Shown here one piece after another: positions 6,871 through 32,041 of a stretch of DNA of 64,000 bases. Each line of letters opens with the position of its first letter. Positions within the stretch are counted from its first letter, which is position 1. The notes beneath the pieces were generated by a model, which saw only the letters and a list, made by a program, of their open reading frames with translations, was not told the origin of the DNA and ran no database searches. The stretch comes from Armatimonadota bacterium. GTDB lineage: Bacteria > Armatimonadota > Fimbriimonadia > Fimbriimonadales > GBS-DC. The stretch is taken from the NCBI GenBank assembly GCA_037444405.1, contig JBBIML010000011.1:32001-96000 (forward strand), given 5' to 3'. The position numbers were made by a program, and so were the translations under genes.

Positions 6871-8573
6871 ATATTGGCGAGCTGTTTGTGCAGGCAGGTC
6901 TGGTCAGCCATGAGCAGCTGCAGGATGCCCTGCTGAAGCAACAGGAGGGCATCCCACTACCGCTGGATCGGCTGCTGGTTCAGCTGGGCTACATCACCGA
7001 AAAAGACCGCGTGCGTATCCTGGGTCAGCACTGGGGCATCCCCTTTATCGATCTGGTAGAAACACCGCCAGACCCCAGGTTGAGTTCAGTGATTCCTGCT
7101 GATATGGCGAAGCGCTATCGCGCTGTGCCTGTGATGCAACAGAACGGCAAGCTCACCGTTGCCCTTGCGGACCCGCTCGATATCTTCGCCATCGACGAGA
7201 TTCGCCAGCACACCAAACTGGAAATCGAAGCCGTTATCGCCACCGAGGACGACATCCAGAACGCTCTGCGCCAGCTCTATCGGGTGAGCGCTGCTGTCTC
7301 CGAGACGGTGCAGGAGCTGATGCGCGATATGGGCGAGGCGCAGATTCAGACTCTTGCGAGTGAAGAGGAGGACCTCTCAGCGGAGGAGCTGCGCGAAATC
7401 GCTGACGATGCGCCCGTCGTGCGCCTCGCCAACATGATTATCACGCAAGCCATCAACGACGGCGCCAGCGATATTCACATCGAACCCGCGCGCGATTGCG
7501 TGAAGGTGCGCTACCGCATCGATGGCGTAATGATCGATTCGCTGGTGCTGCCCAAGCGCGTGCAGGCGTCGCTCACCTCCCGCTTCAAGATCATGGCGGA
7601 TATGGACATCGCCGAGAAGCGTGTTCCCCAGGATAACCGCATCAGCGCAACGATTGATGGACGCGAGTATGATTTCCGTGTTTCAACCCTGCCATGCATC
7701 TACGGCGAGAAGATTGTGATGCGCGTGCTGGACAAGTCGAGCGTGCGCGTCGGGCTGGACAAGCTCGGCTTTTTGCCCGACACCCTCGCCAAACTTGAAG
7801 AGGTGATCAGCCGCTCCTACGGCATTATTCTGGTGACGGGTCCGACAGGTTCGGGCAAGTCCACCACGCTCTACTCGATTCTGTCGCGCCTGAACACGGG
7901 GCTGGTCAACATTATCACCGCGGAAGACCCTGTGGAGTATGAGTTGCCGGGCATCAATCAGGTGCAGGTGAACCCGAAGGCGGGGCTGACTTTCGCATCA
8001 GCGTTGCGGGCGATGCTGCGCCAGGACCCCGACATCATCATGGTGGGCGAGATGCGCGACACCGAGACCGCCACAATCGCGGTTGAAGCTGCGCTCACGG
8101 GGCATCTGGTGCTGTCCACGCTGCACACCAACGATGCGTCCAGCGCGCCGCCGCGCCTGATCGAGATGGGCGTGGAGCCGTTTATGATTGCTTCGTCGCT
8201 GATTGCGGTGCTGGCGCAGCGACTGGTGCGCACGCTCTGCCCGCGCTGTAAGCAGCCCTATCATCCCACTGAGTCGGACTTCCTGCGCTACGGCTTTACT
8301 CCCCCCGACAATCTGCATGCTATCGAAATCTTCCGCGCTAAAGGTTGCGACTATTGTAAGCAGACGGGCTACAAGGGGCGTACAGGCATCCACGAGCTGC
8401 TGGTCATCAACGACGCCATTCGCGACCTGATTTTGCAACATGCCGCGGCGTATGCCATCCAGAAAGTGGCGGTCGAACATGGGCTGCGCCTGCTCAAAGA
8501 GGACGCCCTGCAGAAGGTGCTGCTCGGACGCACCAGCATCGAGGAGGTTGTGCGCGTGATCTACAGCGGTTAA
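6867..8573 (+). CDS. pilB: type IV pilus assembly ATPase PilB/GspE
   Basis: GASDIHIEP, GPTGSGKST, EDPVEY, RQDPDIIMVGEMRD, STLHTN, CPRC/CDYC zinc motif. Confidence 0.93.
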   Translation: MNIGELFVQAGLVSHEQLQDALLKQQEGIPLPLDRLLVQLGYITEKDRVRILGQHWGIPFIDLVETPPDPRLSSVIPADMAKRYRAVPVMQQNGKLTVALADPLDIFAIDEIRQHTKLEIEAVIATEDDIQNALRQLYRVSAAVSETVQELMRDMGEAQIQTLASEEEDLSAEELREIADDAPVVRLANMIITQAINDGASDIHIEPARDCVKVRYRIDGVMIDSLVLPKRVQASLTSRFKIMADMDIAEKRVPQDNRISATIDGREYDFRVSTLPCIYGEKIVMRVLDKSSVRVGLDKLGFLPDTLAKLEEVISRSYGIILVTGPTGSGKSTTLYSILSRLNTGLVNIITAEDPVEYELPGINQVQVNPKAGLTFASALRAMLRQDPDIIMVGEMRDTETATIAVEAALTGHLVLSTLHTNDASSAPPRLIEMGVEPFMIASSLIAVLAQRLVRTLCPRCKQPYHPTESDFLRYGFTPPDNLHAIEIFRAKGCDYCKQTGYKGRTGIHELLVINDAIRDLILQHAAAYAIQKVAVEHGLRLLKEDALQKVLLGRTSIEEVVRVIYSG

Positions 8574-25724: not shown

Positions 25725-27692
25725 CTATTCCTCCTGACCCTCGTATTTCTCTTTGAGCGCCTGCACGACGGCAGGGTCGGCGAGGGTGGTGGTGTCGCCC
25801 AGCGCACGCCCTTCCGCCACATCGCGCAGCAGGCGACGCATAATCTTGCCACTGCGCGTTTTGGGCAGGTCGGCAGTGAAGATTATATCGTCGGGTCGGG
25901 CAAGCGCGCCGATTTTCGCCACCACATGCTGCTTAAGTTCCTCGCGCAATCGCTCATCGGCGGTGTAGCCCTCTTTGATAATCACGAAGGCAGCCACCGC
26001 CTGGCCCTTGATCTCGTGCGATTTGCCGATGACGGCAGCTTCGGCGACTGCCGGGTGATCCACCAGCGCGCTTTCGATTTCCATCGTGCTGAGGCGATGC
26101 CCCGACACATTGATCACATCGTCCACGCGCCCCAGCAGCCAGAAGTAGCCGTCCTCGTCGCGCTTGGCGCCGTCGCCCGTGAAATAGATGCCGGGGTACC
26201 GGCTCCAGTAGATTTGCTGGAAGCGTTCGGGGTCGCCGTACAGCCCGCGCGTCATCGCCGGCCAGGGGCGCGTCAGCACCAGATAGCCACCCCTGTTCGG
26301 CGGCACCGGGTTGCCCAGCTCATCCAGAATGTCGGGGAACACCCCTGGAAACGGCTTGGTGGCGGAACCGGGCTTGGTCGCCACGATGCCTGGCAGCGGG
26401 GTGATCAGAATCATGCCCGTTTCGGTCTGCCACCAGGTGTCGACAATCGGGCAGCGTCCGCCGCCGATATGCTCGTGGTACCACATCCACGCTTCGGGGT
26501 TGATGAGTTCACCGACGGTGCCCAGCAGGCGCAGACTGCTCAAATCGTGGCGGCGCGGGTACTCTTCGCCCCACTTCATAAAGGCGCGGATGGCAGTCGG
26601 CGCGGTGTACAGAATGTTCACCCGATATTTCTCCACTATCGCCCAGAATCGGTCGCGGTCGGGATAGTCGGGTGCGCCCTCGTAAATCACGCAGGTCACC
26701 CCGTTCGCCAGCGGACCGTACACGATGTAGCTGTGCCCTGTAACCCAGCCCACATCGGCGGTACACCAGAAGATGTCTTCGTCCTTGAGGTCGAAAACCC
26801 ATTTGCTGGTGATGGCGACGCCCACGAGATAGCCGCCTGTGGTGTGCATGATGCCTTTCGGCTTGCCCGTGGAGCCGGAGGTGTAGAGCAGATAGAGCAG
26901 GTCTTCGCTGTCCATCGGCTCTGGCTCGCAGGTGAGCGGCGCGTTCGCCATCAGCTCGTGCCACCAGAGGTCGCGCCCTTCCTGCATCGGCACGGTGTAG
27001 TCGCCACCGATACGCTGATAGACAATCACTTTTTCGATGGAGGGTGTGTTGCGCAGGGCTTCGTCGGCATTGCGCTTGAGCGGCACGATCGAGCCGCGGC
27101 GCCAGCCACCATCGGCGGTGATCAGCACCTTCGCCTGCGCGTCGTTGATGCGGTCAGCGAGGCTCTCCGCGCTGAACCCGCCGAACACCACCGAATGGGG
27201 CGCACCGATTCGCGCACACGCCAGCATTGCAATCACCACTTCGGGGATGAGCGGCAGATAGATACACACACGGTCGCCTTTGCGCACGCCCAGCGCCTTC
27301 AGCACATTGGCAAACTTCTGCACCTCGCGATAGAGGTCGTTGTAGGTCAGCACGCGCTCCTCGCCTGGCTCGCCCTCCCAGATGAGCGCGGCTTTGTTGC
27401 GCCGCCATGTCTTCACATGTCGATCCACGCAGTTGTAGCAGGCGTTCAGCTTGCCGCCGACAAACCACTTCGCATAGGGCGGGTTCCACTCCAGCACCGT
27501 GTGCCATCTCTGATACCAGTCGAGAATCTCGGCGCACTTCGCCCAGAACGCCTCATAGTCGCGCGCCGCCTCTTCATAAATAGCCGCATCGCTGATATTC
27601 GCCTGTCGCACGAACTCTTCCGAAGGCGGGAAGACCCGCTGCTCCTGCAACAACGCCTCAATCGCCATTGTGGTCTGCATCGTCTCCATCAT
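25725..27692 (-). CDS. acs: acetyl-CoA synthetase (AMP-forming)
   Basis: [44 protein letters not shown]. Confidence 0.97.
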
Positions 27693-27795: not shown

Positions 27796-27818
27796 TTGAC
27801 AGAGGTCTGGGGTATAAT
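27796..27818 (+). promoter_or_regulatory. promoter of the ubiquitination-like operon
   Basis: Perfect TATAAT 27813-18; TTGACA 27796-801 lies only 11 nt upstream (non-canonical spacing); SD GAGGTG before ATG 27837. Confidence 0.55.
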
Positions 27819-27836
27819 AGGGGTGAGGTGTTGCAT

Positions 27837-28037
27837 ATGGCAACAAGGAACGCAGTCAAGGAAAAGGTTCGCCTGAACGGCGTCGACTATGAGATCACGC
27901 TGACGCCTGCGACCACGAACGACCCGACCACGCTGAACACGCCGATCACTCCGTCTCAGCCGACCACGCCGCAGGAAGTGGTGCGTCGCGCACCTGCCGT
28001 CACCGAGCTGCCGCGCTGGGAGGACGGTATCGGCTAA
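27837..28037 (+). CDS. 66-aa small protein, candidate modifier/substrate peptide (C-terminal ...WEDGIG)
   Basis: Own -10, SD and ATG; hidden as the tail of shadow ORF 25614..28037; first gene ahead of E2 and JAB-E1. Confidence 0.75.
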   Translation: MATRNAVKEKVRLNGVDYEITLTPATTNDPTTLNTPITPSQPTTPQEVVRRAPAVTELPRWEDGIG

Positions 28038-28067
28038 GCCCTGGATCGCTGTTGCGGGGATGACACC

Positions 28068-28517
28068 ATGAACGCACGCCTGCAGCGGATCGCCTACGAG
28101 GCGGCGCTTGCTGCGACGCACTACTCGCAGACGAAGCAAGCCTCCTATGACGACGAGGACGGGGAGTGGGTCATTATTCACGACTTTCCGCTCCCCCGCG
28201 GCTACAACTACACCACCACCGATGTGCTGATTCTGCTGCCGCGTCACTACCCCCAGACCCCGCCTGACTGGTTCTATGTGGATTACAACCTGCGCTTAGC
28301 GAACGGGCAGCGTCCGCCCCATGTGTTCTATGGCGACACCTCCTATGACCCCAATCGGGGTCAGTTCCGCGAGGCGCCGCCCGCGCTGAAGGGCTGGACC
28401 GCCTGCTGCCTGCACATCCATGAGTGGCGCCCTGCAGCGAACCCGCTGGCAGGGCATTCCCTGCTGAGTGTGTGCGAACTCATTAAGAAGGCGTTTGAAC
28501 GCTGGCGACGCGGGTAG
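28068..28517 (+). CDS. prokaryotic E2/UBC-fold protein (Prok-E2_E/BubB-like)
   Basis: WVIIHDFPLPRGYN...ILLPRHYPQTPPDWFY...GWTACCLHIHEWRP. Confidence 0.8.
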   Translation: MNARLQRIAYEAALAATHYSQTKQASYDDEDGEWVIIHDFPLPRGYNYTTTDVLILLPRHYPQTPPDWFYVDYNLRLANGQRPPHVFYGDTSYDPNRGQFREAPPALKGWTACCLHIHEWRPAANPLAGHSLLSVCELIKKAFERWRRG

Positions 28518-28520
28518 GGA

Positions 28521-30008
28521 GTGGAGCCGTTGCAAGCTCTGTGTGGCGAGGTACGCATCACGCGCACGCTCTGGACGCGCCTCACCGAAGCGCTTCTCGC
28601 TGACCGCTGTGTCGAGACGAAGTGCTTCATGCTGTGTCGCACGCTGGAGCTGCCAGGGCGAGCGGTGTTCCTTGTGCGCGAGCTGGTGGAGGTGCCGCCG
28701 GACGCCTACGAGGAGCGCTCCGCCAACCGCGTCATCACCCGCCCGGAGTTCGTGCATACCTTGCTGACGCGCTGCGAAGCGGAGGGCTGGTCGCTGCTGG
28801 AAGCCCACTCCCATCCGTGGACGCCCCGACCGCGCTTCTCCTCGATTGACCACCAGAGCGACTATCAGAAGTTCCGCGTCACCGAGGTGCTATCGCCCCC
28901 GTTTCGGCACGGCACGCTGGTGTTCGGCTCCGACATGGGCTTCGACGGGCACATGTGGGACTATGCGAACCAGCAGGTGGTGCCGATTGAGCGTATTCGC
29001 ATCGTGGGGCTGCCCTGCGAGACGCGCTATGCGACCGACCTCGCGCCGCCGGAGCTGGACAAAGCCCAGCGGGAGCTGTACGACCGTCAGGTACGCGCGC
29101 TCGGTGTGGAGGGTCAGGCGCTGTTGAGCCACCTGCGCGTGGCGATTGTGGGCGCGGGCGGGCTTGGCTCCCAGATTGCGCAGGCGCTCACCCTGCTCGG
29201 CGTCGGACATCTGACGCTGATCGACCCCGACCGACTGGAGCTGAGCAATCTGAACCGCATCGTGGGCGCCACCTGGTATCGCGCGATTCGGCGATGGCGC
29301 AAGGTGAAAGCGCTCGCGCTCTGGTTCAACCGCGCTCGCAGCCCCGAATGGCGCACCATCACGCCCCTGCCCGCCGATGCGCGCTCGCCTGAACTGCTGA
29401 CCACCCTGCTCGAAAGCGATATGCTGATCGGCGCGGTGGACAGCGCGACCGTGCGCCAGTATCTGAACCTGCTGGCGGTGTGCGCATTAATCCCCTATCT
29501 GGACGCGGGTGTCGGTATACGCGCGGAGGCGGGACGCATCGCGCAGGGCGGCGGACAGGTGCAGCTCATCCTGCCGGGCGAGACCGCCTGCCTCAGCTGT
29601 GTCGGGCATCTGGTGCGCCAGAGCGTGGAAGAACAGCTCACCCCTGAACAGCGTGCCATGTCGATCCAGCATGGCTACATTCAGGGCGAGCGGATACCCA
29701 ACCCGCAGGTGGTGTTCCTGAACGGCGTCGTGGCAAACCTGCTGGTGTGGGAGTTCGTGAAGCTGACCACGGGTTGCCTGCCCGCGCAGCCGTATGTCTA
29801 TTACGACCTGGTGGCACAGCAGGCGTTCCCTGCCGAAGCCGAACGCAATCCGAACTGCTTCCTCTGTTCCTATGAGGCAGGTAGCCTGCTGGCAACCGGG
29901 CTGGACGGCATCAATGGCTACCTGAAGCCGCCCCGCCAGAAGGCGCCGCCCGTGCCACGATCCCGAAGCGAATCTCCATCCCCTGACACGGAGGAGAGAC
30001 CCGCATGA
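28521..30008 (+). CDS. JAB/JAMM peptidase - ThiF/E1 adenylyltransferase fusion
   Basis: JAMM E...HSHP-x7-S-x2-D; E1 YDRQ, VGAGGLGS, IDPDRLELSNLNR, AVDS, CLSC and CFLC. Confidence 0.9.
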   Translation: MEPLQALCGEVRITRTLWTRLTEALLADRCVETKCFMLCRTLELPGRAVFLVRELVEVPPDAYEERSANRVITRPEFVHTLLTRCEAEGWSLLEAHSHPWTPRPRFSSIDHQSDYQKFRVTEVLSPPFRHGTLVFGSDMGFDGHMWDYANQQVVPIERIRIVGLPCETRYATDLAPPELDKAQRELYDRQVRALGVEGQALLSHLRVAIVGAGGLGSQIAQALTLLGVGHLTLIDPDRLELSNLNRIVGATWYRAIRRWRKVKALALWFNRARSPEWRTITPLPADARSPELLTTLLESDMLIGAVDSATVRQYLNLLAVCALIPYLDAGVGIRAEAGRIAQGGGQVQLILPGETACLSCVGHLVRQSVEEQLTPEQRAMSIQHGYIQGERIPNPQVVFLNGVVANLLVWEFVKLTTGCLPAQPYVYYDLVAQQAFPAEAERNPNCFLCSYEAGSLLATGLDGINGYLKPPRQKAPPVPRSRSESPSPDTEERPA

Positions 30009-30421
30009 AGCCAATCCCGGAAAATCGTCGTTGGGTCGAGCAGGGCAAACCGAATCAGTCGCCTCAGCGCATATCGAACGAGTCGATTATAGAGATCGAT
30101 CTTCTTGCTGATGAACTGCTCGCCCTGTTGACGGAGCAACAGGGGCAGGTGCTGGAAGCGGGTGCGCCACTGCTCTTTGCTCGCTATGAGGGCACATGTC
30201 CTGCCTGTCTGCAACCGATTCAACGGGGCGCGCTGATCACGCGCCACGCTCGAAGCGGACGCTGGGTGCATGTGGACTGCCTGAACGCTCCCGTTCAGCA
30301 CAGCATTCTTGCCCGCTATGAAGGCTTCTGCCGCATCTGCCGCCAGACGATCGCCGTCGGCGAACCCATCACCCGCGACACCAACCGCGGCTGGGTTCAC
30401 CTGCGCTGTGTGCAGGGTTGA
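30005..30421 (+). CDS. tandem C-x2-C-x19/20-H-x2-C zinc-finger protein
   Basis: Two repeats ARYEGTCPAC...WVHVDC and ARYEGFCRIC...WVHLRC; ATGA overlap with JAB-E1. Confidence 0.7.
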   Translation: MKPIPENRRWVEQGKPNQSPQRISNESIIEIDLLADELLALLTEQQGQVLEAGAPLLFARYEGTCPACLQPIQRGALITRHARSGRWVHVDCLNAPVQHSILARYEGFCRICRQTIAVGEPITRDTNRGWVHLRCVQG

Positions 30422-30454: not shown

Positions 30455-32041
30455 ATGCAAACTGTTCGGCGTTGCGACCTCCTGCTGCGAGGCGGCACTC
30501 TGTACGACGGCACAGGCGCACCCGCTCAGCGTGGGGATATTGCCATTCGGGACGACCGAATCGTCGCGATGGGCGCGCTGGACGACTGGGAGGCGGGCAT
30601 GGTGGTGGATGTGGCGGGGCTATGCGTGGCGCCCGCCTTCATCGACATCCACACACATTCCGACTTCTCCCTGCCACACCATCCCGAACAGCTGAGCGTG
30701 CTGTATCAGGGCGTGGGCACGCAGGTGGTCGGCAACTGCGGGCTGGGCGTCGCTCAAACCGACACCACCCCCATCTTCCAGCAGGAGCAGCGCTGGCTCA
30801 AGCCTTATGGCGCGGAGATCAACTGGAACAGTTTCGCCGAGCATCTGCGCCAGCTGGAGGAGCGCGGCGTCGGCACCAATGTGATTTTCCTCTGTGCGCA
30901 TGGCACACTGCGCAAGAAAGTGATGGGCTTCGATCAGCGTCGTCCCATGCCCGCCGAACTCGAAGCGATGAAGCGTGAGGTGGCGACCTGCATGGAGGCG
31001 GGCGCGTGGGGACTCTCCACCGGGCTGGAGTATGTGCCCGGCTGCTACGCCGACACGCAGGAGCTGATTGAGCTGGCGACGGTCGCGGCGCAGTACGGTG
31101 GATTCTACGCCACCCATCTGCGCAGCGAGGGCGACCACCTGATTGAGAGCGTGGCGGAAGCCATCGAGATTGCCGAACGCGCCGAACTGCCCCTGCAGCT
31201 ATCGCACCACAAAGCCGAAGGACGCGCCAACTGGGGCAAGGTCAAGCAAACGCTACAGATGGTCTCCGATTCAGTCAAGCAGGGGCTGGATGTGATGCTC
31301 GATGTCTACCCCTACACGGCGTACCAGACCTCGATGGGTGTCGCCTGCCTGCCGAGCTGGGTGCTGAACGGCGAGCCGCAGGCAGTGTATGAGCGCCTGC
31401 GCGACCCTGCAACCCGCGAACGCATCGTGCAGGAGATGCGCGAGCGGCACGACGACTGGAACAGCATCGTGATTGGCTCCGTCGCGGGTAATCGGTCTCT
31501 GCAGGGGCTGACCGTTGCGGAAGCCGCCGCCGCTGTTAGTCAATCACCTGAAGAGTTCGTGATTGACCTGCTGCTGGAGCATGGTCTCTATGTGGGCGTC
31601 GCCTGCTTCCATCTGAGCGAGGATGACCTGCGCATGGTGCTGCGCTATCCGCTCACAATGATTGGCTCCGATGGCGTCGGCTACGACCCGCAAAAGATGA
31701 GCGCGGAACGCCCCCACCCGCGCAGTTATGGCACTTTCCCGCGCGTGATCCGACGCTATGTGCGCGAAGAGGGGCTGCTGACGCTGGAGGAAGCCATCTT
31801 CAAGATGACGGGGCTGCCCGCTGCCCGACTGGGACTCACGGATCGCGGCACCCTGCATGCAGGCGCGTATGCCGATATTGTGGTGTTCGATGATGCCCGA
31901 ATCGCCGACCGCGCCACCTTCCGTGAGCCGCACCAGCTGTCCGAAGGCGTGGTCCATCTCATCCTCAACGGGCGCTGGGTGCTGAGCGACGGGCAGTTCA
32001 CCGGCAACCGCGCCGGCAGAATCCTGCGCAAGGGTCACTGA
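30455..32041 (+). CDS. N-acyl-D-amino-acid deacylase (amidohydrolase)
   Basis: PAFIDIHTHSD, VGNCG, GLSTGLEY, HLRSE, IGSDG, HPRSYGTFPR. Confidence 0.92.
   Translation: MQTVRRCDLLLRGGTLYDGTGAPAQRGDIAIRDDRIVAMGALDDWEAGMVVDVAGLCVAPAFIDIHTHSDFSLPHHPEQLSVLYQGVGTQVVGNCGLGVAQTDTTPIFQQEQRWLKPYGAEINWNSFAEHLRQLEERGVGTNVIFLCAHGTLRKKVMGFDQRRPMPAELEAMKREVATCMEAGAWGLSTGLEYVPGCYADTQELIELATVAAQYGGFYATHLRSEGDHLIESVAEAIEIAERAELPLQLSHHKAEGRANWGKVKQTLQMVSDSVKQGLDVMLDVYPYTAYQTSMGVACLPSWVLNGEPQAVYERLRDPATRERIVQEMRERHDDWNSIVIGSVAGNRSLQGLTVAEAAAAVSQSPEEFVIDLLLEHGLYVGVACFHLSEDDLRMVLRYPLTMIGSDGVGYDPQKMSAERPHPRSYGTFPRVIRRYVREEGLLTLEEAIFKMTGLPAARLGLTDRGTLHAGAYADIVVFDDARIADRATFREPHQLSEGVVHLILNGRWVLSDGQFTGNRAGRILRKGH

Follow-up and report, generated by a model that had tools for sequence, protein, structure and literature searches.

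A Bub-family ubiquitination-like operon with a probable peptide modifier in Armatimonadota

Conjugation pathways of the ubiquitin type pair an activating enzyme (E1) with a conjugating enzyme (E2), and, to our knowledge, such E1/E2 cascades are thought to act on proteins of the beta-grasp fold. A 2009 paper reportedly named classes 6A-6E. The Bub operons, formerly "6E" or "DUF6527", fall into two types according to two companion preprints (bioRxiv 10.1101/2024.11.21.623953; bioRxiv 10.1101/2024.11.21.623966). The first describes a BubCD peptidase that cuts BubAB right after a conserved Gly, and a chemistry without a catalytic cysteine, which uses Tyr Y370 on the E1 crossover loop and S333/H335 with D299 in the E2; it reports no phage protection and no known targets (bioRxiv 10.1101/2024.11.21.623953). 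Outside Bub, a passage of a 2025 review names Cap2 as the only system known to activate a protein that is not a beta-grasp. Here, we describe a four-gene operon in a stretch of 64,000 nucleotides (nt), hereafter the window, from an Armatimonadota bacterium of the order Fimbriimonadales, family GBS-DC (GenBank assembly GCA_037444405.1, contig JBBIML010000011.1, positions 32,001 to 96,000 of the forward strand). The operon encodes, in this order, a peptide of 66 amino acids (aa), an E2, a fusion of a JAB domain with an E1, and a small zinc protein (Table 1). It probably specifies a Bub-family (6E) pathway for ubiquitination-like conjugation, whose modifier would be a non-beta-grasp peptide of about 64 residues.

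Compared with type I Bub of Citrobacter (BubAB/BubCD/BubE; PDB 9ea4 and 9eae), the operon is alike in its JAB residues, its adenylation Arg and its crossover-loop Tyr, in having a Prok-E2_E type of E2 with an Asp ... x-His arrangement, and in encoding a precursor that would be cut after a conserved Gly. [quoted passage not shown] Moreover, type I operons include the serine protease BubE (DUF6527), which is absent from the window's operon, where a tandem C2HC protein stands in last place, and they often reside in mobile islands, while the window's cassette is inherited within one bacterial family beside housekeeping genes.

Type II CBASS (cyclic-oligonucleotide-based antiphage signaling system) is alike, according to the review passage, in applying E1/E2 chemistry to a non-beta-grasp C-terminus and in having a JAB partner (Cap2/Cap3). 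There, an E2-E1 fusion, Cap2, activates the C-terminal end of the CD-NTase, a large enzyme, whereas here a small peptide is accompanied by a separate E2 and a JAB-E1 of another family, and the Cap2 models of PADLOC match the ThiF part of the window's fusion only. The Pup/PafA/Dop system uses a largely unfolded modifier of about 60 residues that is processed at its C-terminus before ligation, akin to the peptide described here, but Pup is ligated through the side chain of a C-terminal glutamate by a glutamine-synthetase-like ligase, without E1 or E2, whereas the window's peptide ends in Gly and has both enzymes. No description of a peptide modifier in Bub/6E operons was found by full-text searches of the literature, and the supplementary operon tables of the preprints may list these loci. 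The novelty lies in the combination of a free, apparently non-beta-grasp peptide, a Cys in the E2, the absence of DUF6527 from the operon, a C2HC protein and an N-terminal motif; the enzymes belong to a known family.

The peptide and its place in the operon

The peptide ORF is a real gene under purifying selection, because it is conserved in position and sequence and its ratio of nonsynonymous to synonymous substitutions (dN/dS) was 0.04-0.17 in 11/11 pairs; that of the E2 in the same pairs was 0.04-0.26. Its association with the two enzymes was followed through 40 related genomes, 24 of the same family and 16 of other families in the order. An orthologue-level JAB-E1 (62-97% identity) was found in 21 of the 24 and in none of the 16, and the peptide and E2 genes lie directly upstream of the JAB-E1 in 17 of 20 loci of these relatives. 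The other three loci have a JAB-E1 with no adjacent E2: G006 and G010 hold an E2 elsewhere, and G014 has a peptide gene on another contig. The family genomes G004, G007 and G008, which are 94-100% complete, showed no JAB-E1, E2, peptide or PIPxNRRW motif (see below). When the E2 served as query against a single genome for each species, 31 loci emerged, with a peptide gene just upstream of the E2 in all Armatimonadota cases (30/30), and a scan of metagenome contigs with peptide alignment A2 gave 54 loci, 52 of them with an E2 directly after the peptide; in the remaining two, the contig breaks off within 216 nt or within the gene of the peptide itself. The condition that the initial annotation had named as refuting its reading, homologous E2/JAB-E1 loci without a similar upstream peptide, did not hold for close loci, which keep the peptide in 30/30 Armatimonadota and 52/54 metagenome cases.

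The sequence of the peptide falls into four parts. In the window, residues 7-22 form a predicted N-terminal hairpin, a Thr/Pro-rich middle holds 9 Thr and 6 Pro in 24 residues, and a final LPRWEDG ends at Gly64, followed only by Ile65-Gly66 and the stop. Alignments of the family show a conserved N-terminus, E-K-V-x-[ILV]-N-[DG]-x-[ED]-[FY]-E-I, a Thr/Pro-rich middle that varies in length and sequence, and a conserved C-terminal stretch that ends in L-P-[RINH]-W-[EQ]-D-G, with the Gly invariant; W-[ED]-D-G is likewise given for this invariant end. The tail beyond this Gly is 2-7 residues long and varies freely among species (IG, GLR, AF, AY, AN, AQ, GC, APA, ATKR, TDGASA and others), and in three members (G047 and G062, both from another Armatimonadota family, and the metagenomic P0068) the ORF stops exactly after W-E-D-G. 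An invariant Gly with a dispensable tail is the signature of a ubiquitin-like precursor trimmed to a terminal Gly, from which we infer the trimming itself, with the JAB domain encoded two genes on as the evident candidate enzyme, on the model of BubCD; the pattern of a C-terminal Gly exposed either directly or after a short tail is that of a ubiquitin-like protein (Ubl) used as a modifier.

Members from close loci are 61-70 aa long, and shorter ones of 54-57 aa, with a Gly/Ala/Pro-rich middle, also exist; ubiquitin has 76 residues. The family is small. A word-indexed search for relatives of the peptide returned 2 proteins only, and a search by profile among 1.84 billion representatives gave 11 at E <= 0.001; the nine of these that were examined (P0060-P0068) all belong to this same family, P0065-P0067 diverging in their C-terminal part. 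The ESM Atlas gave no usable match to the peptide. In an otherwise intact operon at L019/L043 (G015), the peptide ORF is interrupted by an in-frame stop in its conserved hairpin (KIND*EFEI), which could be a sequencing error or a pseudogene.

The initial annotation had proposed that a Pro/Thr-rich peptide of 66 aa, rather than a beta-grasp protein, fills the Ubl slot of this operon, and structure prediction and profile comparison are in line with this. The peptide has no match in Pfam, NCBIfam or PADLOC, including none to Multi_ubiq; PF14452 was not found in the genome, and the control genomes gave no match to it either. When compared by hhalign with three Ubl-like proteins from sister-clade operons, described below, the peptide scored a probability of 1.1%, with nine aligned columns that cover the N-terminal V-x-V-N-G-x-x-Y only. 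AlphaFold2, run on an alignment of 17 sequences, predicts a beta-hairpin with strands at residues 7-13 and 16-22 (predicted local distance difference test, pLDDT, about 85) and no other regular structure, with a mean pLDDT of 66 and a predicted template modeling score of 0.25. Thus, the peptide shows no detectable beta-grasp signal and seems, from its sequence and this model, to be non-beta-grasp and mostly unfolded.

That the peptide occupies the modifier slot follows from more distant operons, because these have a Ubl-sized protein in exactly that place. An Anaerolineae locus, L052 (E2 42% and JAB-E1 36% identical), encodes a 73-aa protein there that ends in DAPTFEYG-SIPG and has no Pfam match; the Armatimonadota genome G369 encodes one of 70 aa that ends in APQRVKGG-C; and in G319, also Armatimonadota, a Ubl-sized protein is fused to the E2 (...DAPRFRWG|APP...). 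By length and motifs, these three look like single beta-grasp Ubls. The sister-clade operons have in common with the window's the gene order, the Cys-x-His of the E2 and a GY motif of the JAB-E1. They differ in that their slot protein is 70-73 aa long, free or E2-fused, and in that the downstream gene encodes a membrane protein, whereas the window's encodes the zinc protein.

In addition to complete operons, there are satellite modules that consist of a peptide and an E2, with or without a zinc protein, and have no adjacent E1. Several genomes have such a module as their second one; seven (L038, L039, L040, L042, L048, L049 and L051) were found together with 19 metagenome loci, and some of all these include a zinc protein with one or two fingers. 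The satellite modules form three well-supported clades of their own in the E2 tree (99/93, 99/96 and 99/100), so the lineage maintains paralogous E2s that are each paired with a separate peptide copy. This distribution fits one E1 serving several E2s.

Bub-type enzymes and the layout of the operon

Profile searches identify the E2 as a Prok-E2_E protein (PF14462, 4.2e-14, above the cut-off) and the fusion as a ThiF protein (3e-36) with a weak Prok-JAB match (0.068). PADLOC and NCBIfam gave nothing specific for the operon proteins, the PADLOC matches being generic E1 matches to the ThiF part only. When all PDB structures were searched, the closest solved structure to the fusion was Citrobacter BubCD (9.6e-24 over residues 12-425, spanning both domains). 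In the HMMER alignment, which allows for a two-residue offset of the PDB chain, Glu32, His96, His98, Asp110, Arg246 and Tyr386 correspond to BubCD E28, H91, H93, D104, R227 and Y370. The residues listed for the two domains in Table 1 are invariant in 12 sequences, including the 36%-identical Anaerolineae protein. In type I Bub, BubCD joins a JAB/JAMM peptidase to a homodimer-type E1. As judged from these alignments, the JAB and adenylation sites of the fusion are intact and the enzymes are Bub-type, not Bil-type; the initial annotation had left the choice between the two, and it is the Bub half that stands. Four invariant cysteines in the E1 (357, 360, 446 and 449) form what we take to be the structural zinc pattern of MoeB/ThiF, whereas the aligned stretch of BubCD has no Cys. 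The C-terminal tail of the fusion is Pro-rich (PPVPR). No match to the DUF6527 protease (BubE) was found by Pfam among the four operon proteins, to which that search was confined.

The closest solved structure to the E2, in the same search, was Citrobacter BubB (E 2.1e-6). Asp67 aligns to BubB D299, and Cys114-x-His116 falls in the Ser-x-His column of Bub in a 21-member family alignment; all three residues are invariant in 11 orthologues, and we propose them as the catalytic set. In alignment A5, the column of residue 114 holds Ser in all distant Bub-like members and Cys in the close clade, apart from P0035, P0041 and P0043, which have Ser. The replacement of Ser by Cys at the predicted active site is a notable change relative to Bub: the E1 keeps Tyr386, but the catalysis predicted here would not be cysteine-free as in Bub, since the E2 carries Cys114 in the Ser column.

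The four genes are co-oriented and tightly packed, as first annotated, with ORF calls that lie 30 nt and 3 nt apart and then overlap in ATGA. The promoter then assigned to them did not hold up: two perfect hexamers, TTGACA and TATAAT, do lie upstream, but with a spacer of 11 nt, and no sigma-70-type promoter emerged from a consensus scan of the + strand upstream of the operon, so they were rejected as a canonical promoter and their function is doubtful. As for the flanking genes named at that stage, acetyl-CoA synthetase was confirmed, while the downstream gene, called D-aminoacylase, is placed by Pfam in the Amidohydro_3 family only. Both were rejected as parts of the system, the flanks of the cassette varying between genera. 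At L012 and L017 (and L008), the reading frame of the JAB-E1 runs on into that of the zinc protein but for one stop between them (...PRGG*PMAKPIPINRRW), and the genome search flagged these junctions as open frames with one internal stop.

Table 1. Coordinates of the operon, its features and the neighboring genes in the window
Feature	Position	Strand	Remarks
Peptide gene	27837-28037	+	66 aa + stop
Gly64 of peptide	28026-28028		last residue of LPRWEDG
Ile65-Gly66 of peptide	28029-28034		tail, then stop
E2 gene	28068-28517	+	149 aa, Prok-E2_E (BubB-like)
Asp67 of E2	28266-28268		proposed catalytic residue
Cys114 of E2	28407-28409		proposed catalytic residue
His116 of E2	28413-28415		proposed catalytic residue
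JAB-E1 fusion gene	28521-30008	+	495 aa, GTG start, BubCD-like
JAB part	28545-29015	+	residues about 9-165; Glu32, His96, His98, Ser107, Asp110
ThiF/E1 part	29079-29858	+	residues 187-446; Arg246, Asp307, Cys 357/360/446/449, crossover-loop Tyr386 (29676-29678)
Zinc protein gene	30005-30421	+	138 aa, tandem C2HC
MKPIPENRRW of zinc protein	30005-30034		N-terminus
C2HC module 1	30179-30280	+	Ala59-Cys92
C2HC module 2	30311-30409	+	Ala103-Cys135
TTGACA and TATAAT	27796-27801 and 27813-27818	+	both hexamers perfect, spacer 11 nt; function doubtful
Acetyl-CoA synthetase (acs)	25725-27692	-	Pfam AMP-binding + ACAS_N; upstream, divergent
Amidohydro_3 protein	30455-32041		Pfam; downstream of operon

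The zinc protein and a candidate docking motif

The last gene of the operon encodes a protein that starts with MKPIPENRRW and continues through a poorly predicted linker into two zinc modules, for which AlphaFold2 gives a pLDDT above 90 (residues 55-138). Across the family, the pattern is an N-terminus M(A)[KR]PIPxN[RK]RW, a variable linker and two A-R-Y-x-G-x-C-x2-C ... W-V-H-x2-C repeats, with Cys65, Cys68, His89, Cys92, Cys109, Cys112 and Cys135 invariant and His132 nearly so. The zinc ligands would pair as C65/C68, H89/C92, C109/C112 and H132/C135, and 16 residues separate pairs 2 and 3. In a RING domain, the zinc ligands number eight and are cross-braced, and the central pairs have a spacing of 1-3 residues, both inside a pair and from one to the next. 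Like RING-type E3 ligases, this is a small Cys/His zinc protein that ends an E1/E2 operon, but it differs in its tandem C-x2-C ... H-x2-C arrangement. Pfam gave sub-threshold matches only, to zf-ANAPC11 (23.0 bits against a cut-off of 25) and to zf-RING_2; fold comparison gave a weak mix of RING, PARP-type and C1 (Foldseek best E 0.011; VIA Z <= 4.2); and the ESM Atlas returned only the protein's own unnamed cluster. We therefore do not call it an E3, given the spacing of two tandem C2HC modules and the lack of a significant fold or profile score. The extra double zinc-finger gene of the initial annotation, which was there given a possible part in targeting, is thus present as two tandem C2HC modules, which do not form a canonical RING.

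The N-terminal motif extends beyond the zinc protein of the window. It is retained in satellite modules without an upstream E1, and a six-frame translation of the window's genome (G000) contains two matches only, the N-terminus of the zinc protein and that of P0070. The latter is an 85-aa single-pass membrane protein that starts with MARPIPTNRRW (contig C13:78612-78866, - strand; L127:1112-1366), and relatives of it by sequence were found only in the window's genus. At the DNA level, the PIPxNRRW pattern occurs in 16 of 41 genomes, all of the same family (15 of the 24 others plus the window's own), with no occurrence in the 16 genomes outside the family and none with a reversed-pattern control. 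The C-terminal tails of the JAB-E1 carry a similar motif, [KR]PIPxPR[GQ]. From this resemblance, we suspect that the motif is a short docking element common to the E1 tail and to adaptors or substrates.

Other proteins with this type of sequence were seen in passing. In G001 (L141:1976 onward) and G003 (L144), of the window's genus, the operon continues immediately past the zinc-protein gene with a fifth gene, whose product is a membrane protein with an RPIPPNRRW N-terminus and a C-terminus that is acidic and rich in repeats. The Anaerolineae locus L052 has a membrane-protein gene behind that of the JAB-E1 (6895-7419), and its product starts with MARPIPIN. A 254-aa metagenomic protein, P0071, known from one contig of 2159 nt, has the peptide joined directly through its terminal Gly to APIPENRR; the remainder is a domain of about 190 aa with no Pfam match and with weak matches in G431 and G005. 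P0071 may be a linear precursor of natural origin, may mimic a conjugate at the N-terminus, or may be an artefact of assembly.

Proposed pathway and biological role

Homology and sequence together suggest a four-step scheme for the pathway. The JAB domain of the fusion would strip the variable tail after Gly64 of the precursor, and the E1 domain would then adenylate Gly64 with ATP. Either directly or, following BubCD, by way of crossover-loop Tyr386, the acyl group would next reach Cys114 of the E2 and form a thioester there, in place of the serine oxyester of classical Bub, and the E2 would pass the peptide to amino groups of target proteins. The [KR]PIPxN[RK]RW proteins, both the zinc protein and the membrane proteins, might dock on this machinery as adaptors or substrates, their motif resembling the [KR]PIPxPR of the E1 tail. 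A more specific version, which we put forward only tentatively and think less likely than its opposite, is that a dedicated, mostly disordered peptide of about 60 residues serves as a true E1/E2-dependent modifier, lacking a fold as Pup does but joined to its targets through ubiquitin-type chemistry, and is delivered by paralogous E2s to the zinc-finger and single-pass membrane proteins with the N-terminal motif, perhaps at their N-terminus or near it. The P0071 fusion would fit such a conjugate as its natural linear form.

Several points weigh against the proposed pathway and bear on its role and on the nature of the peptide. Concerning its role, antiphage defense like that of Bil or that proposed for Bub, where the peptide would be attached to proteins of the phage or set off an abortive response, is a doubtful but serious alternative. 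Bil is antiphage, and Bub operons, according to the preprint, are often found in mobile elements together with regulators of the CapW or CapH/CapP kind. Outside the family, the E2 type occurs sporadically (14 of 401 genomes of the phylum, the window's own included), and a restriction-modification pair lies upstream of the cassette in L032. Moreover, in G047, of another Armatimonadota family, a peptide-E2-JAB-E1 cassette without zinc protein (L125, C37:14500-24500) adjoins an Mrr_cat-YdjM nuclease, a weak Abi_2 match, helix-turn-helix genes and a weak phage Rep-O-like protein, and these neighbors keep a defense reading alive.

On the other side, 21 of the 24 other genomes in a single family hold the cassette, and its neighbors are housekeeping genes that change from genus to genus, such as those for FtsX/MacB, SurE, an iron-sulfur protein, H+-pyrophosphatase, a short-chain dehydrogenase/reductase, RtcB, MscS and GH57; one Uma2 gene also lies near a cassette. 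No CapW or CapH/CapP-type regulator was found among 60 flanking ORFs, the part scanned of the 110 ORFs called at ten loci once operon ORFs and shorter overlapping ORFs had been set aside, and PADLOC adds nothing beyond the generic E1 matches described above. Classical Bub, too, is so far without phage protection or known targets according to the preprint, so membership in the family says little about function (bioRxiv 10.1101/2024.11.21.623953). Because the cassette is inherited within one bacterial family and has housekeeping neighbors, we consider the regulation of endogenous proteins somewhat more likely in this lineage than a mobile defense island. The initial annotation had spoken of a variant conjugation system, possibly for defense; variant conjugation is supported, while the defense part is not, given the housekeeping flanks and the lack of a specific PADLOC match in the lineage.

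Concerning the nature of the peptide, it may be a stripped-down Ubl rather than an unrelated protein. In the full form of this alternative, which we judge unlikely, the peptide is a conventional Ubl in disguise, a degenerate beta-grasp reduced to strands 1-2 and the C-terminal strand with its tail, which folds on the E1 or E2, and the operon is an ordinary Bub system with Ubl and E2 split. Its V-x-V-N-G-x-x-Y hairpin is similar to the strands with which the sister-clade Ubl-like proteins begin, and its C-terminal Pro-x-aromatic-x-x-Gly is similar to their end; the sole hhalign match is that hairpin. Moreover, the AlphaFold2 model rests on 17 fairly similar sequences, and with shallow alignments the method can miss folds, so that folding on binding is possible. 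The common hairpin and the Pro-x-aromatic-x-x-Gly end would also permit, within the limits of a shallow alignment, descent of the peptide from a beta-grasp Ubl through loss of the helix and inner strands. However, the hhalign probability is very low and Pfam gave no match, to Multi_ubiq or otherwise; the middle is Thr/Pro-rich or Gly/Ala/Pro-rich and of varying length; and the members of 54-57 aa look too short for a helix and two further strands.

Two further alternatives are very improbable. One is a pathway for a sulfur carrier or a peptide natural product, in which the JAMM peptidase would expose the terminal Gly and its adenylation would serve thiocarboxylation or MccB-like chemistry instead of protein tagging. 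QbsE/QbsD/QbsC and CysO/Mec are thiocarboxylation pathways with a JAMM-exposed Gly. A small protein with a tail after Gly, together with a JAB domain and a ThiF/MoeB-type adenylase with a four-Cys zinc site, marks such pathways, and MoeB, ThiF and MccB are among the PDB matches of the JAB-E1, but a dedicated E2 with conserved Asp/Cys/His stands at every locus and is duplicated along with the peptide, Pfam shows neither a rhodanese domain on the E1 nor any biosynthetic enzyme among the operon proteins, and the best relatives are the conjugating BubCD and BubB. It is equally hard to credit that the peptide is no E1 substrate but a regulator, chaperone or leader, with the E1/E2 activating the C-terminus of another protein in the way that Cap2 activates CD-NTase. 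E1-E2 enzymes that act on non-Ubl substrates do exist, according to the review passage, but it is difficult to account in another way for a terminal Gly that never varies while the tail after it does or is missing, and the peptide takes the place that a Ubl-sized protein has in related operons and accompanies each paralogue of the E2.

If the operon is indeed a Bub-family pathway with a peptide modifier, it would widen the range of things that ubiquitin-type enzymes are known to attach, in a hot-spring bacterial lineage. The peptide could then show the minimum that an E1 must recognize, a hairpin and a tail, and the change from Ser to Cys in the E2 within one family bears on how oxyester and thioester cascades interconvert. 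With four small genes, a thermophile-associated lineage and close solved relatives, the operon makes a cheap test case, and a tag that is short, heat-stable and genetically encodable, and that comes with ligation enzymes of its own, is a possible tool. Importantly, the candidate docking motif could name targets, which are still unknown for classical Bub.

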